From the IMG/VR virus record IMGVR_UViG_3300024999_000044, positions 1 through 64,000 of that record: a stretch of DNA of 64,000 nt; one strand, written 5' to 3'. Every line of letters starts with the position of its first letter. Position 1 is the stretch's first letter. The notes under the pieces were generated by a model. It was not told where the DNA came from. It saw nothing but the letters and a program-made list of their open reading frames with translations, and searched no databases. The position numbers were made by a program, and so were the translations under genes. Source of the DNA: a virus. Below, piece by piece: positions 7,112 to 43,541 of the stretch.

Positions 7112-7140
7112 TTGACTTTTTCCTCGTTTTGTGGGAAAAT
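7112..7140 (+). promoter_or_regulatory. sigma-A-type promoter, family copy
   Basis: TTGACT, 17 bp, GAAAAT, with the family upstream context GGTAACCCTAC. Confidence 0.55.
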
Positions 7141-7189
7141 TAATCAACCTCTCCAATAGGGGAGACACAAATTTAAAGGGGGATTTAGC

Positions 7190-8524
7190 ATGGTAGTAGC
7201 ATTTGCTATAGAGGGTGATGATATGGTTAGATATGAGATAGGCATGTCGGAGAATAACCTTCCCCATTGGACCAGTTTAGAGGCGTTAAAGGAGCTGATT
7301 CAGAATAATGTATTTGCTAGAGTTATTCTTGGAGATACAACTTCCATCACCCACAATGGAAAATATGCGGTGATATCCAATTCCCCCAGTGGGTTTACAA
7401 GGGGTAAGTTGCTAATTGGTGAGTCAGAACAACGTAACAAGAGTGGTAGCCCAGGTGACTACGGAGAGGGCTTAAAGGTTGGTATGCTGGTTGCACTTAG
7501 GTCAAATAGGGAAATCTACCTAGAGACAAATGGGTTCACTGTACACCCTACACTTGAACCTTCCAGTATTGACCCAACTGTCAATGGGTTAACTTATTAT
7601 ATCGAAGACACTGATACCCATGAGGGCACTACTTTTTACATGGAGTGCTCCTTAGAAGAACTCACCCAAGCTACTCAGGCTTTTGCCATATTAAATGGAG
7701 TGGGCCAAGAACTCCTGTGCACAGATTCCATATTACCACAAAATCCAGGACTGATATTTGTTAATGGTGTCTCCATTGCTAAGGTAAACAGTGTATTTGG
7801 CTATAACTTCACTAATTCTGACATAAAAAATCGTGATCGCAATATGGTAGATCTCGGGAAAGCTAAGGAAGCGATAAACGGTCTGTTAGCCCGCACAGAA
7901 GATGTTGACTTAGCCCGAACAGTTATTAGAAACATAATGTCCTGTCCCACTTCACTAGAAGCTGAGGCAGGTGTATCCTCATGGAGGTGCCCTTCAGTTG
8001 ACACGTGGAGAACTGCCATTAAACTGGAGTTAGGAGATAAGTTATCATTGGCCACTGGTTTGGACACGGATACTAAGGCAAGGTATTACCAATATAAAGT
8101 GTTGGTGAATGTACCTAGTGCTTGGAAAACTCTGTTTGTCACAGCCGGCGTACCTTATACGGATGATTTACAGGAATTAGCACAGTTGCCCAAGAATATG
8201 CACCGTAAACCTAACTCAGAACAAGCAACCATGTTAGGGTGGTGTAAAAGGCTGTGCAAGTTGTATGTGGGAGATTATGGAACAGTGAAAGTATCTGAAC
8301 ACGTTTACAATGAGCATGGTAATGAATGCAATGGTCTTTACGAAAGAAAAACCGATACAGTATGGTTAAAAGCAAGTCTGCTAGAATCTAAGGAGGATTG
8401 TTGGAAAATACTAGTGCATGAGACCCTACATCGTATTACTGGTGCTGAAGATAACACTCCAGAATTTACTAAGGCATGGGAGAATGCTACTTGGGGGATA
8501 CTGATGAGAGGAAAATCTGAATAG
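7190..8524 (+). CDS. hypothetical protein with a C-terminal HExxH zinc-metallopeptidase-like motif
   Basis: Motif VHETLHRITGAED near the C-terminus. Confidence 0.55.
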   Translation: MVVAFAIEGDDMVRYEIGMSENNLPHWTSLEALKELIQNNVFARVILGDTTSITHNGKYAVISNSPSGFTRGKLLIGESEQRNKSGSPGDYGEGLKVGMLVALRSNREIYLETNGFTVHPTLEPSSIDPTVNGLTYYIEDTDTHEGTTFYMECSLEELTQATQAFAILNGVGQELLCTDSILPQNPGLIFVNGVSIAKVNSVFGYNFTNSDIKNRDRNMVDLGKAKEAINGLLARTEDVDLARTVIRNIMSCPTSLEAEAGVSSWRCPSVDTWRTAIKLELGDKLSLATGLDTDTKARYYQYKVLVNVPSAWKTLFVTAGVPYTDDLQELAQLPKNMHRKPNSEQATMLGWCKRLCKLYVGDYGTVKVSEHVYNEHGNECNGLYERKTDTVWLKASLLESKEDCWKILVHETLHRITGAEDNTPEFTKAWENATWGILMRGKSE

Positions 8525-8574
8525 GGGGAATTTGTGTGTGGATACTATTTGGGATATTATTGTCACACTTTATA

Positions 8575-8715
8575 ATGGCTTCTGCAATGAGTAAGATGAT
8601 GGTCATTGTAGGTATATTAACCATAGTGGTCATAATCTGCACCTTAGGTCAGATAAGCTCAGATTTGGAAAAATTTAGAAACTGGTGGCATAAAGATGAC
8701 AATAATAGATACTAG
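8575..8715 (+). CDS. small membrane protein, 46 aa
   Basis: MASAMSKMMVIVGILTIVVIICTLGQ…; not in the track because it is under 60 aa. Confidence 0.3.
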   Translation: MASAMSKMMVIVGILTIVVIICTLGQISSDLEKFRNWWHKDDNNRY

Positions 8716-8726
8716 GGGGAGTTGGT

Positions 8727-9281
8727 ATGACAGATGTTGCGTTTACTCATTTTCCTATTACTACTGAATACCTTGAGGTGGATAATTTTCACCCCAACCC
8801 ACACACAGGAGTAGATTTTGCTACTCCTGTTGGCACTCAAGTTCAGGTTCCTAATGATGGTATTGTGCAGTTAATCAGATTAGACCCGTTACTTGGTAAT
8901 GCTGTATGGATAAATCTAGATAACGGAGTACAGATGGTAGTTGGCCATTTATCTCAGGTTGACGTAACTTATGGACAACACTTAATAGCAGGTCAAAGCG
9001 TAGGGCTATCGGGCGGTACGCCCGGTACGCCGGGGGCTGGGCACTCCACAGGCCCACATGTCCATGTAACTACCAGACTAATAAAAGACGGTAGTTTGGT
9101 TAATCCTTTAGCGTATGTGGGTGGTGTAAGTAGTGGGTGGGATAGTGTGGTGGAGCCTGTATTTGTGGTGCTTGCCCTATTACTATTTATCTCTATGCCA
9201 CTATTTTCTAGGGTTAAGATGCTTAGCAGATTTGTACTATTATGTGTATTATTTTTTGTGGTTATGTATAAAATGGGGTGA
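8727..9281 (+). CDS. M23 (LytM-type) metallopeptidase with a C-terminal TM segment
   Basis: HTGVDFA … GHLS … GPHVHV zinc-ligand pattern; hydrophobic C-terminus. Confidence 0.8.
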   Translation: MTDVAFTHFPITTEYLEVDNFHPNPHTGVDFATPVGTQVQVPNDGIVQLIRLDPLLGNAVWINLDNGVQMVVGHLSQVDVTYGQHLIAGQSVGLSGGTPGTPGAGHSTGPHVHVTTRLIKDGSLVNPLAYVGGVSSGWDSVVEPVFVVLALLLFISMPLFSRVKMLSRFVLLCVLFFVVMYKMG

Positions 9282-9401
9282 GGTGTAATGTGGAGATAGA
9301 ACCTGGGTGGAAAGTGCTGCTAGTGTACACTTTTCCTGCCATAGTTGGGATCATTGTGTCCTGTAGGGAATGGTATTTGAAGCATAAGGAGAAGTGACGA
9401 T

Positions 9402-9599
9402 GTGGGATGTAAGGATTGTATCTTCTTTAAAAAGAAAGAGTGGGTAGGGAAATCTAGATGGTTCAGGATAACTGCCGCTGTGGGCCATTGCATGGATTCA
9501 ACTAACCCTGACTTCAGTATGTGGGCTAGAATGTATGGCAGGGGTCTTACTAGGTTTAGGCTGGCAGTGAAACCAAAATGGTGTGGAATAGGAAAATAA
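9402..9599 (+). CDS. hypothetical small protein
   Basis: Track ORF with an AAGGAG RBS; weak. Confidence 0.25.
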   Translation: MGCKDCIFFKKKEWVGKSRWFRITAAVGHCMDSTNPDFSMWARMYGRGLTRFRLAVKPKWCGIGK

Positions 9600-9618
9600 A
9601 ATATGCAATTACATACCA

Positions 9619-9652
9619 AGCAGGAGACGAATTCGCGTCTCCTGCTTTTTTA
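9619..9652 (+). terminator. rho-independent terminator
   Basis: Hairpin AGCAGGAGACG-aatt-CGTCTCCTGCT followed by TTTTTTAA. Confidence 0.7.
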
Positions 9653-9690
9653 ATTCAGAGGTTCAAGTTGAAGAAGGAGGGCATTATTAA

Positions 9691-42378: not shown

Positions 42379-42445
42379 CGTACGTACCTCCTTGCCTAGC
42401 TAGGGTGGTCTCCACCGCTCTCGTGTGCCCCCTGCTGACACTCTA

Positions 42446-42474
42446 AGTTTCTCACGAAACAGAGAAAAAGTCAA
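42446..42474 (-). promoter_or_regulatory. sigma-A-type promoter, family copy, weak -10 GAAACT
   Basis: Reverse complement reads CCGTACTTGACTTTTTCTCTGTTTCGTGAGAAACT. Confidence 0.5.
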
Positions 42475-42516
42475 GTACGGTTACGGGTGTGCGCTAGCCT
42501 ACCGGACGCTACGCGT

Positions 42517-42548
42517 CCTACCTAGGCGGGGGGCTTCATCTTTAGTGG
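42517..42548. repeat. promoter-upstream repeat CCTACCTAGGCGGGGGGCTTCATCTTTAGTGG
   Basis: Read directly. Confidence 0.55.
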
Positions 42549-42720
42549 ACACACCAATGGACATAGAAAAGGCCCACCCTCAGGTGGACCTACTCATGTA
42601 TTTACGCACATTATGCACCACTATATTCACTAACACACCTGCTAGGAAGCACTGTAACAATGCCATATGCACTCACTCCTTCATTTAAGTAGTAGGGGCC
42701 CGTAGGCCCCCTACTCATAT

Positions 42721-43113
42721 TTACTCTGCCACATACCCGGTAGCCTTGATAGCCATGATCACTCTCATCCGCAAGATGGCCTCATGGTCACTGAAGTCAT
42801 ATACGGCGTTCCGCTCGGTAGCGATCATCAGCAGGTCCTCAATAGTGAACTGTTTCCAGCCAGCAGCTTTCTTAGACTTACTAGGGGCCTTAGGAAAGTG
42901 TAGGTACAATATAGCCATGCACATCCTCATTCTATTGATGGCTAGGTTGTCGTCACAAGGATTCCAGGTAAGGCCTTCTAGCTTAATCCATTCCCGTAAC
43001 TGATCATCAGATAGCTTCTTATATACCTTCTTTAGGTCCTTATCTATCTTGAATGTCCCTACTTCAGGGTACACCACTGCTGATACCTTGACCACTGGTT
43101 GTTTCTTTGCCAT
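42721..43113 (-). CDS. paralog family member C
   Basis: Start at MAKKQPVVKVSAVVYPEVGTFKIDKDL…, preceded by GCAGGAGGTATGGGTATATG. Confidence 0.6.
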   Translation of the reverse strand: MAKKQPVVKVSAVVYPEVGTFKIDKDLKKVYKKLSDDQLREWIKLEGLTWNPCDDNLAINRMRMCMAILYLHFPKAPSKSKKAAGWKQFTIEDLLMIATERNAVYDFSDHEAILRMRVIMAIKATGYVAE

Positions 43114-43186
43114 ATACCCATACCTCCTGCATCTAGCACCGGGATCTCCAGCACCCGTCTGGTGTGTGTCCCCTGCTGATGTTATT

Positions 43187-43215
43187 ATTATATCACGGAC
43201 ATAGGAATAAGTCAA
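43187..43215 (-). promoter_or_regulatory. sigma-A-type promoter, family copy, minus strand
   Basis: Reverse complement reads TGTACTTGACTTATTCCTATGTCCGTGATATAAT. Confidence 0.7.
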
Positions 43216-43256
43216 GTACAGAAAGTACCCTGTGGTATGCGTGTGGGGTGGTATGT

Positions 43257-43340
43257 GATGTAGCTAGAGGAACGCTTCATATATTGGGGGATGGTGGAAT
43301 GGTAGGTGGAGTAGCTAGGGGGACCCTTCATCTAAATAAG
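43257..43340. repeat. two degenerate promoter-upstream repeats: TGTAGCTAGAGGAACGCTTCATATATTGG and GAGTAGCTAGGGGGACCCTTCATCTAAATAAG
   Basis: Read directly. Confidence 0.5.
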
Positions 43341-43512
43341 CACGGAGGCTTATTCGCTTACCCACCAATACCCCCACCACCAATCCTAGGCTTTATTAGA
43401 GAAATCTAATACAGTACAAATATATTTTGTATCTCTCTTATCTAGGGGGGACCTTCCTATTAAAAGAGACCTGAACTTGGGTTCGAGCCTTTGGGTCGGA
43501 GCGGGTGTGAAA

Positions 43513-43541
43513 ACCCTAAAGCTTGACTTTCTTTTCATTTT
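43513..43541 (+). promoter_or_regulatory. promoter-like site TTGACT-17 bp-CAAAAT
   Basis: Weaker -10; precedes the RBS AGGAGGGG of 43575. Confidence 0.4.

Follow-up and report, generated by a model that had tools for sequence, protein, structure and literature searches.

A repeated sigma-A-type promoter with a conserved leader in the presumed early region of an uncultured SPO1-like phage

What does it mean when a viral genome carries one nearly perfect host-type promoter over and over, together with the leader and the ribosome-binding site that follow it? The question is raised by the first 64,000 nucleotides (nt) of IMG/VR record IMGVR_UViG_3300024999_000044, the whole of which stretch is called the window here. 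An earlier note on this DNA had described about 19 copies of the promoter (12 on the plus strand, 7 on the minus strand) and had taken them for an early regulon of a virulent phage, transcribed by the host RNA polymerase of a low-GC Gram-positive bacterium. Homology and promoter consensus support this proposal and together make it the best reading: it is very probable that the sigma-A holoenzyme of the host would initiate at 18 sites right after injection, with terminators insulating the units from one another. The promoters are of an already known type, the early sigma-A promoters of SPO1-type Herelleviridae; their layout is the expected one, and they are not a new kind of element. The family would mark the early host-takeover part of an uncultured Herelleviridae-type groundwater phage of 142 kilobases (kb). 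The parts worth following are the evolution of the cassettes in which the promoters lie and a candidate small RNA.

A family of eighteen promoters

The weight-matrix search that the earlier note had proposed was run with a 37-column matrix, built from 18 of the claimed sites, which align without gaps, and scanned over both strands of the 64 kb. It returns exactly 18 sites, 11 on the plus and 7 on the minus strand, with scores of 31.6 to 51.5 bits; every other position on either strand scores 10 bits or less, and the maximum over 20 shuffles of the sequence is 15 bits. Eighteen of the claimed copies are real, and the nineteenth, at 43513, is not a member: its TTGACT lies at 43523, the hexamer 17 base pairs (bp) farther on is CAAAAT, the TG is missing and the score is below 10 bits. 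The other positions stand, except that the -35 element placed at 12439 starts at 12440.

The family consensus is TAC-TTGACT-(17 bp)-RTG-N-TATAAT, and its copies lie between 7112 and 43215. As had been claimed, every copy has a 17-bp spacer and a TG-extended -10 element, with GTG or ATG at -16 to -14 in 18/18. The -35 hexamer is TTGACT in all copies but one, that at 27434 (TCGACT). The perfect TTGACT/TATAAT pair attributed to the family is exact in only 7 copies, while the -10 element of the rest is merely NANAAT-like. In most copies the bases at -38 to -36 are TAC (TAT in two), and the conserved upstream context that had been noticed takes the form of GTAACCTTAC, GTAGGCTTAC or GGTAC. The spacer is conserved as well, its first half being rich in pyrimidines (TTTTYCYC); the spacers of copies 27434 and 28106 are identical. 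The copy at 19376, earlier called weak, does have the lowest score of the family, 31.6 bits, and a -10 element of GACAAT.

The family and its statistics are direct observations, and they dispose of one rival at once. The possibility that chance or base composition produced these matches to a loose promoter consensus is practically negligible. It is true that a generic sigma-70 scan finds weak matches as often as in shuffled sequence, which makes that scan uninformative at 9 of 12 matching positions; its TG-extended class with 10-11 of 12 matches, on the other hand, is confined to 7.1-43.2 kb. For the literal pattern TTGACT-N15-19-TATAAT there are 7 occurrences against an expected 0.09, and the matrix scores are cleanly bimodal, with 18 sites of at least 31 bits and all others at 10 or below. 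All 18 copies are intergenic and have the same orientation as the next gene; none lies beyond 7.1-43.2 kb of the window, and a looser regular expression adds only one unrelated match, intragenic, at 62356. Moreover, orthologous copies are conserved in a sister phage described below. The excess of the exact pattern, the matrix scan and this conservation refute the chance reading. A scan of IMG/VR with the exact promoter pattern gave only single-copy matches in unrelated contigs.

The copies carry the -16-region signature of sigma-A, the group 1 sigma, which consists of the two hexamers, a spacer of 17 +/- 1 bp and the TRTG/TG extension. They are given below one by one; plus-strand coordinates begin with the start of the -35 element, and minus-strand coordinates with the low coordinate of the 29-mer.

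7112 to 7140, plus strand: TTGACT, 17 bp, GAAAAT, with GTG at -16; 42.4 bits; leader of 43 nt with hairpin CUCUCC/GGGGAG; first gene 7190-8524 (444 aa, phrog_6077), followed by an M23 peptidase gene (8727-9281)
12440 to 12468, plus strand: TTGACT, 17 bp, GAAAAT, with ATG at -16; 38.4 bits; leader hairpin GUGGGGA/UCCCCAC (-12.4 kcal/mol); terminator-like hairpin upstream, 12214-12239; first gene 12518-15769, an intein-bearing UvrD helicase
16932 to 16960, plus strand: 48.1 bits; leader hairpin; upstream hairpin GGAGGCCTAGGGGCCTCC; first gene 17005-17238
19376 to 19404, plus strand: 31.6 bits; -35 element overlapping the 3' arm of terminator hairpin 19346-19377; first gene 19454-19657
21343 to 21371, plus strand: 44.5 bits; leader hairpin GUGGGGCGAAGCCCAC; upstream terminator AAAGCCCCAC...GTGGGGCTTT; first gene 21416-21772
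22085 to 22113, plus strand: 38.0 bits; leader hairpin with z = -5.2; first gene 22175-22912, a paralog of SPO1 gp51
24389 to 24417, plus strand: exact TTGACT, 17 bp, TATAAT; 45.2 bits; terminator 24319-24350; first gene starting at 24466
27434 to 27462, plus strand: -35 element TCGACT; 42.5 bits; first gene 27512-27766
28106 to 28134, plus strand: 45.4 bits; first gene 28185-28496
33995 to 34023, plus strand: exact consensus pair; 40.2 bits; no open reading frame behind it, a putative non-coding transcript following
34181 to 34209, plus strand: exact consensus pair; 48.3 bits; first gene 34261-34464; last plus-strand unit before the convergence at about 34.8-35.1 kb
36727 to 36755, minus strand: exact consensus pair; 42.5 bits; terminator 36803-36784 upstream; leader hairpin of -14.7 kcal/mol (z = -2.5); first gene 36670-36290
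38369 to 38397, minus strand: 46.2 bits; leader hairpin of -20.3 kcal/mol; first gene 38310-37987
39193 to 39221, minus strand: GTAC subfamily; 46.9 bits; long leader starting AUCAGCAGGGGACAC; first gene 39122-38739, a gp51 paralog
40416 to 40444, minus strand: exact consensus pair; 51.5 bits, the best of the family; terminator 40558-40539; first gene 40350-39880
41741 to 41769, minus strand: exact consensus pair; 49.4 bits; leader of 108 nt; terminator 41932-41913; first gene 41626-41222, a gp51 paralog
42446 to 42474, minus strand: -10 element GAAACT; 47.4 bits; terminator 42591-42570; first gene 42378-42202
43187 to 43215, minus strand: exact consensus pair; 38.2 bits; outermost minus-strand copy; first gene 43113-42721, a gp51 paralog

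Homology to SPO1 and the predicted early regulon

Insight into what these promoters do comes from the relatives of the phage. Its large terminase is 68-70% identical to those of the Bacillus phages JL, CP-51, Shanette, SP8 and SPO1, while a megablast search of 20 kb against deposited phages (INPHARED 2025) gave no close DNA match. An identical terminase is found on metagenome contigs, and related contigs come from groundwater metagenomes; the named relatives are all virulent Herelleviridae that infect Bacillota. By these comparisons the window belongs to a SPO1-like (Spounavirinae-type) myovirus of the Herelleviridae that is seen only in groundwater metagenomes. The following homologs of SPO1 genes, assigned by tblastn against the SPO1 genome (FJ230960), are collinear with their counterparts.

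422-727: gp33 homolog
670-1263: gp34 homolog (sigma-like)
6583-7041: gp34.11 homolog
12518-15769, plus strand: gp34.33 homolog, a UvrD-type helicase whose intein has a LAGLIDADG domain (SPO1 gp34.33 is also annotated with an intein)
31138-31401: gp36.1 homolog
31414-32079: gp36.2 homolog
22175-22912, plus strand, and 38739-39122, 41222-41626 and 42721-43113, minus strand: four gp51 paralogs
56272-56673: gp1.9 homolog
57627-59291: gp2.11 homolog (terminase)
61305-63935: gp2.12 homolog

In SPO1 the 13.2-kb terminal redundancy opens with gp36.1 and gp36.2 and holds the host-takeover module, which is made of two converging gene sets. The collinear order and the position of these two homologs indicate that the window consists of the right arm, the equivalent of the terminal redundancy (about 31.0-43.4 kb) and the left arm with the terminase. 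As in SPO1, where genes 37-49 face genes 50-60, the layout is convergent, with plus-strand units up to 34822 and minus-strand units from 35147. Nine promoter copies (33995-43187) lie in the equivalent of the module and nine (7112-28106) in the adjacent right arm, and the units that they drive are short operons of mostly orphan genes. The four gp51 paralogs all stand directly behind family promoters, at the head of their units. In SPO1 gp51 is present once and is annotated 'transcription regulation'; two more distant relatives, introduced below as L027 and L028, have several copies. The gp51 assignment was made by tblastn against SPO1 and from precomputed PF26856 matches in the sister phage, and a Pfam scan found no domains in most of the early proteins, the gp51 paralogs included.

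The terminal redundancy of SPO1, when its sequence (FJ230960) is read directly, contains about a dozen promoters of the form aaaaagtNc-TTGACtTtyCCTAC....GTGnnATAAT with a 17-bp spacer, and the matrix built from the window gives seven of them 12.5-27.6 bits. The likeness to the early promoters (PE) of SPO1 and SP82 is extensive, since the phages are related, the position is syntenic and the operons are short and converging. In particular, the SPO1 promoters share with the window TTGACT, the 17-bp spacer, (C)GTG-N-(T/A)ATAAT and a pyrimidine-rich stretch after the -35 element. In both phages the leaders start with a GC hairpin (ATCAGAGGGGACACCUCCUC, ATCAGAGGGGACACCTCCTC and ACAGGCGGGGGCAACCCCGC are SPO1 examples, and some minus-strand leaders of the window begin ATCAGCAGGGGACAC), the leader ATCAG.GGGGACAC is common to both, the ribosome sites are very strong and first genes are of the gp51 type. 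There are also differences. The flank is (C/G)TTAC or GGTAC in the window, but an AAAAAG tract in SPO1; the ribosome site is GGAGGUAUG in the window and AAAGGAGAGGUU in SPO1; the window has four gp51 paralogs in place of one; one window copy drives a predicted non-coding RNA; and nine further copies are spread over about 24 kb of the right arm, where SPO1 has none.

The same architecture is found in staphylococcal kayviruses, which belong to the same family. In vB_SauM-515A1, 58 early promoters with TTGACW, 17 bp, TRTGN and TATANT are described, 36 of them curated from coverage steps in RNA sequencing and the others found by a weight-matrix scan, with the early start at the 6th nt after the -10 element (PMC7698491). 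A second source places host-takeover genes behind typical -35/-10 promoters in kayvirus terminal repeats (PMC6445280). Kayviruses (vB_SauM-515A1, K, 812) thus resemble the window in having dozens of copies of this promoter (PMC7698491), as well as host-takeover genes in long terminal repeats and GC stem-loop terminators between units (PMC7698491, PMC6445280). They differ in that their early promoters control about 81% of genes genome-wide, whereas the family in the window is confined to 36 of the 64 kb; a conserved leader or ribosome-site module is not described in the available portions of either source (PMC7698491, PMC6445280). Judged by SPO1 and the kayviruses, both the architecture and the placement seen in the window are the norm for Herelleviridae.

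One could suppose instead that a phage-encoded sigma factor (gp34-like or gp2.21-like) reads these promoters, which would then be a middle class resembling the host consensus. The window does encode a gp34 homolog, a protein with a Sigma70_r2 domain is encoded just outside it, the extra conserved bases could mean an altered specificity, and authors who work on kayviruses disagree about the split between early and middle promoters (PMC10383478). However, the two hexamers, the 17-bp spacer and the RTG at -16 are the canonical Gram-positive sigma-A signature, and some promoters must act before any phage protein exists. The SPO1 promoters that depend on gp28 and on gp33/34 differ strongly in consensus, and neither the middle (AGGAGA...TTTNTTT) nor the late (CGTTAGA...GATATT) consensus of SPO1 is enriched in the window. 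Furthermore, the homologous SPO1 promoter class is sigma-A dependent, PE5 being transcribed by the sigma-A holoenzyme in vitro (PMC13401047). A phage sigma factor is therefore a highly improbable reader, and recognition by host sigma-A remains the preferred reading. The kayvirus late box TGTTATATTA is not enriched in the window either, and when the regions upstream of non-family genes were read by eye no common motif was seen; no contrasting promoter class could be defined.

Taken as early sigma-A promoters, the copies would define, from sequence, 17 early transcription units and one non-coding unit, and they support the assignment of the phage to a Bacillota host with a canonical sigma-A and a ribosome that reads GGAGG.

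Cassette anatomy and possible exchange among relatives

Each promoter lies in an intergenic cassette of about 150-250 bp, in which the promoter usually comes after a terminator hairpin and is itself followed by a 5'-proximal hairpin and then a GGAGGTATG ribosome site. A terminator-like hairpin was found upstream of 13/18 copies by tool scan and by eye; the clearest are those listed above for 12440, 19376, 24389, 36727, 40416, 41741 and 42446, together with one at 39454-39435 on the minus strand. The leader measures 38-67 nt to the first start codon, apart from the one of 108 nt. In about 13 leaders hairpins of -9 to -20 kcal/mol start 5-9 nt past the -10 hexamer. The 5' ends are predicted; if transcription starts 6-7 nt past the -10 element, the GC-rich hairpin begins 0-5 nt from the 5' end in most copies. 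In the longer minus-strand leaders a single 5'-terminal structure pairs nucleotides 1-48.

The GC hairpins at the 5' end, which the earlier note had pointed out, hold up as a group when the 18 leaders are folded and compared with dinucleotide shuffles: z ranges from +0.06 to -5.2, is negative in 17/18 and averages about -1.4, and the combined Stouffer z is about -5.9. The conserved translation-initiation region is also confirmed, since GGAGGT[AG][TC]G occurs at 11/14 promoter-proximal genes and at only 2/71 of the other genes called in the window. Because the motif is nearly restricted to promoter-proximal genes, the conserved unit extends from the promoter through the ribosome site and goes beyond a general use of AGGAGG. 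The end of the leader and the ribosome site also occur without a promoter, before the gene that starts at 39827. A scan flags several leader hairpins as terminators on the opposite strand. These were dismissed as incidental; the supposed T-run is the complement of the -10 element and is broken by A residues.

From these parts a mechanism can be proposed. Upon DNA entry, unmodified host RNA polymerase holoenzyme would recognise the 18 promoters and drive short operons of mostly orphan genes, among them the four gp51 paralogs, the UvrD helicase and the M23 peptidase. The intrinsic-terminator-like hairpin (13/18) would shield a unit from transcription coming from upstream, and the transcript would start 0-5 nt before the GC-rich stem-loop, to be followed by the GGAGGUAUG-type ribosome site. 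Together, the 5' stem-loop and the strong ribosome site probably stabilise early mRNAs, and they would do so by protecting them from 5'-end-dependent decay (the RNase J1 route). For B. subtilis the rule is that a hairpin guards against RNase J1 only when no more than about 4 nt separate it from the 5' end. The window resembles the 5' stabilisers of B. subtilis and the SP82 case in having a stem-loop at or near the predicted 5' end, then a strong Shine-Dalgarno sequence, on early transcripts of a SPO1-group phage; it differs in that its 5' ends are predicted only, so that the distance from hairpin to 5' end is an estimate. The stability of SP82 early RNA depends on the ribosome-binding site, according to Hue et al. 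1995 as cited in PMC7509114. The longer leaders may be RNase III substrates like the early mRNAs of SP82 (refs 19, 20 in PMC4838370). Recombination among the copies would shuffle early genes. The promoters, together with their hairpin leaders and ribosome sites, combine strength with small size and may for that reason be of use as expression parts for Bacillus.

Some minus-strand cassettes contain a further element:

39266 to 43335, minus strand: 24-nt repeat TTAGATGAAGCCTCCGCCTAGCTA, with copies at 39266, 39343, 40489, 41814, 41865 and 43312 (at most 3 mismatches)

The six matches compare with 0 expected, and a looser pattern gives 8 against 0.36. The copies (6-8, within 39266-43457) sit between the terminator and the next promoter, about 45 bp 5' of the -35 element, and sometimes there are two in one intergenic region. 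GCCTAGG-like motifs are also found upstream of promoters in L027 and L028. A separate family of intergenic GC hairpins, GCGAGCCC-loop-GGGCGAG, lies outside the promoter cassettes at 31033-31053 (plus strand), 48944-48966 (minus strand) and 50368-50390 (minus strand), with a variant near 32744 (plus strand).

Conservation of the cassettes can be followed directly in four relatives. The sister phage (loci L016-L026) has a gp36.2 that is 93% identical to that of the window; L027 is assembly GCA_900155145, L028 is a Logan contig and JL is cultured. A scan of IMG/VR for gp36.2 relatives found none. Over the equivalent of 21-39 kb the sister phage is syntenic with the window, with proteins 35-90% identical, and family promoters occupy orthologous sites at L017 34, about 355 (with an 18-bp spacer), 3712, 6133, 7657, 11701, 12101 and 13253, and at 15424 on the minus strand. 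Ortholog pairs are 21343 and L017 34, 39193 and L017 15424, and 24389 and L016 3713; the ortholog of 27434, at L016 6213, has TTGACT where the window has TCGACT.

At 24389 and 27434 promoter and leader are more conserved than the flanks. At 22085, whose ortholog is the copy with the 18-bp spacer, near-identity with the sister extends from about 8 bp 5' of the -35 element into the gene, and the sequence farther upstream is unrelated. At 28106 (L016 7737 in the sister) the upstream hairpin, promoter and leader hairpin are conserved; the changes in the arms of the upstream hairpin (GTGCCCA/TGGGCAC to GTACACA/TGTGTAC) are compensatory. The ribosome site and gene after the leader hairpin are unrelated. 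The two genomes thus yield one clear gene replacement (28106) and one junction just before a promoter (22085). L027, L028 and JL, which are more distant, share the core; what surrounds it is peculiar to them, with GTCC as the flank, a leader that begins UUCAAGGGGG and GGAGGAGAU as the ribosome site.

The sigma-A core is thus fixed over six phages, while flank, leader and ribosome site are uniform within a genome and differ between genomes. Since the extra conservation is specific to a lineage, and since cassettes are kept while neighbouring genes diverge or are replaced, we infer that most of the conservation beyond the sigma-A contacts would reflect common descent together with recombination or gene conversion among the copies. 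The precedent is the promoter-early stem-loop (PeSL) cassettes of the T4-type phages RB49 and phi1 (PMC2839356). As in the window, a strong host-type promoter and a GC stem-loop are repeated amid orphan genes with about 100 bp conserved; differences between related genomes have their junctions at PeSL cassettes (PMC2839356), to which the junctions at 22085 and 28106 may correspond. The likeness is one of function and not of descent: the sequences are not homologous, and the window phage belongs to another family, with a presumed Gram-positive host. Its cassettes, moreover, usually have hairpins on both sides of the promoter, the terminator upstream and the leader hairpin downstream, and they include a conserved ribosome site. 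Recombination and mini-circles of the PeSL type are hypothetical for the window phage. The cassettes would be a clear case of concerted evolution of regulatory units, an analogue of the T4-type PeSL in a Gram-positive phage lineage.

The precedent allows a stronger claim, that the repeats are above all recombination cassettes, whose uniformity serves the exchange of orphan early genes while promoter activity is real but secondary. A composite of stem-loop, promoter, hairpin and ribosome site that recurs 18 times amid mostly orphan genes, breakpoints between window and sister at cassette edges, the promoter-less copy of leader end and ribosome site, the identical spacers of 27434 and 28106 and the PeSL precedent itself (PMC2839356) all fit. 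Yet there is a single clear gene replacement, window and sister are otherwise syntenic over 22-32 kb, and circular or deletion products cannot be observed from sequence. We give this claim somewhat less than an even chance of being right, and it complements transcription by host sigma-A and does not exclude it.

A different account of the same conservation holds that the additional bases (TAC, TTTTYCYC, perhaps the leader) are an operator for a phage regulator, either a relative of gp44, gp50 or gp51 or a TF1-like HU protein, which would shut off or boost the whole set together and make it a true regulon with its own trans-factor. The information content outside the hexamers is indeed high, and the recurrence of the pyrimidine-rich segment after the -35 element in SPO1, JL, L027 and L028 suggests a function beyond recent duplication. 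In addition, the four units led by gp51 paralogs would supply a candidate regulator, and the 24-nt repeat stands at a fixed distance upstream of minus-strand copies. Set against this, the flanks vary by lineage (TAC, GTCC, GTTC), as drift and homogenisation would produce, and the early proteins that were tested yielded no DNA-binding domain. The SPO1 inhibitors of early transcription in the papers found act on RNA polymerase: Gp44 as a DNA mimic, with no operator action described in title or abstract (PMC8208478), and Gp33 bound to the holoenzyme, again with no operator action described (PMC13401047). An operator is, on balance, unlikely.

Several points weigh against the reading of the 18 copies as a host-transcribed early regulon with stabilising leaders and exchangeable cassettes. 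The functional claims, from sigma-A dependence and early timing to start sites, mRNA stabilisation and recombination, are all inferred. The right arm of SPO1 lacks such a promoter, which weakens the homology support for early status of the nine right-arm copies; JL, L027 and L028, however, carry sigma-A-like sites in their right arms, one of them directly 5' of the UvrD gene of JL, so that right-arm copies are not unique to the window phage. The region upstream of the promoters is not A/T-rich, unlike the AAAAAG tract of SPO1, and thus contains no obvious UP element. Five promoters have no convincing terminator upstream. Single leader hairpins beat shuffles only modestly (z mostly -1 to -2), and four long minus-strand leaders are not significant over the first 40 nt. 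That the module lies in a real terminal redundancy is presumed from gene synteny in an assembled contig, and the argument for recombination comes from two genomes with one clear breakpoint.

A candidate small RNA and neighbouring features

Of all the elements in the window, the RNA predicted behind promoter 33995 is the sole one that could change understanding, and its proposed role is unproven.

34030 to 34150, plus strand: candidate non-coding RNA of about 120 nt, transcribed from promoter 33995, with a terminator that ends near 34150

In the predicted fold an unpaired CAUACCUCCUC separates a 5'-terminal stem-loop from a second one, after which come a terminator hairpin and a U-run; the minimum free energy is -46.3 kcal/mol, compared with -29.5 +/- 3.6 for shuffles (z = -4.7). 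The unpaired seed (CAUACCUCC / CAUACCUCCUC) is exactly antisense to GAGGAGGUAUG, the ribosome site (of the GGAGGUAUG type) of promoter-proximal genes, and in the sense orientation of transcription CATACCTCC occurs once, in this RNA. In the sister phage (L017 11701-11860) RNA and promoter are about 85% identical and the seed is identical. Each of the 26 stem pairs can form in either sequence, 1 change being compensatory and 5 wobble-mediated, and the sister's terminator, though different in sequence, is still a hairpin followed by a T-run. The sole open reading frame in the region, 15 codons on the opposite strand, shows 5 amino-acid changes versus 1 synonymous change in the sister.

These observations suggest a model in which the RNA would pair in trans with the ribosome sites of early genes and act as an anti-ribosome-site regulator. 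The predicted seed duplex is stronger for promoter-proximal ribosome sites than for other genes (mean -18.5 versus -15.5 kcal/mol, Mann-Whitney p = 0.0015), whereas a control with a 16S-like tail shows no such difference in duplex strength. The best predicted duplexes, at -25 kcal/mol, are those with the initiation regions at 24466 and 27512. Should the model be correct and the RNA build up early, its targets could be the initiation regions throughout the early regulon, and pairing would either shut down their translation or trigger RNase III cleavage; the phage would then encode an RNA that switches early to middle expression and that derives from the ribosome site of its regulon, copied in inverted form. 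Against the model stand the number of sequences, which is two (window and sister phage), and the resemblance of the RNA region to an inverted relic of a gp51-type gene start. Rfam gave no match at the gathering threshold or at E <= 1, an exact search with the seed region in IMG/VR and GTDB genomes found nothing, and L027, L028, SPO1 and JL contain no cognate RNA with a co-varying seed, the matches there being complements of gene starts. The model is accordingly tentative, and on present evidence rather doubtful. At the syntenic spot in L027, after the gp36.2 homolog, positions 10984-11130 on the plus strand (contig FTJU01000012) hold a sigma-A-type promoter, a 5' hairpin and a terminator whose loop contains UUCUCCC, with no open reading frame.

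A few observations concern other parts of the window. The gene behind promoter 24389 (24466-24744, plus strand) has an in-frame TGA at codon 31 (24556-24558), and its ortholog in the sister phage (L016 3790-4059, 89 aa) is uninterrupted; the window gene could be a pseudogene, the result of an assembly error or a case of read-through. Within an AT-rich non-coding region at 30155-30520, positions 30160-30289 consist of 2.5 copies of a 52-bp tandem repeat (98% identical) with palindrome ATTAGAAAATTCTAAT. The repeat lies about 0.8 kb upstream of the gp36.1 homolog, where the terminal redundancy begins in SPO1, and it could be a repeat boundary, a packaging site or an origin.

The right arm also carries one tRNA-Met (CAT) gene (3982-4056, plus strand) and unusual phage cargo. 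An 832-aa protein (9691-12189, plus strand) has a major-vault-protein shoulder domain (PF11978, E = 1.8e-26) and a weak vault repeat; its gene is preceded by a strong terminator at 9618-9647 and lacks a family promoter. Upstream of it, at 2970-3869 on the plus strand, an SPFH/Band 7 protein (PF01145) is encoded.

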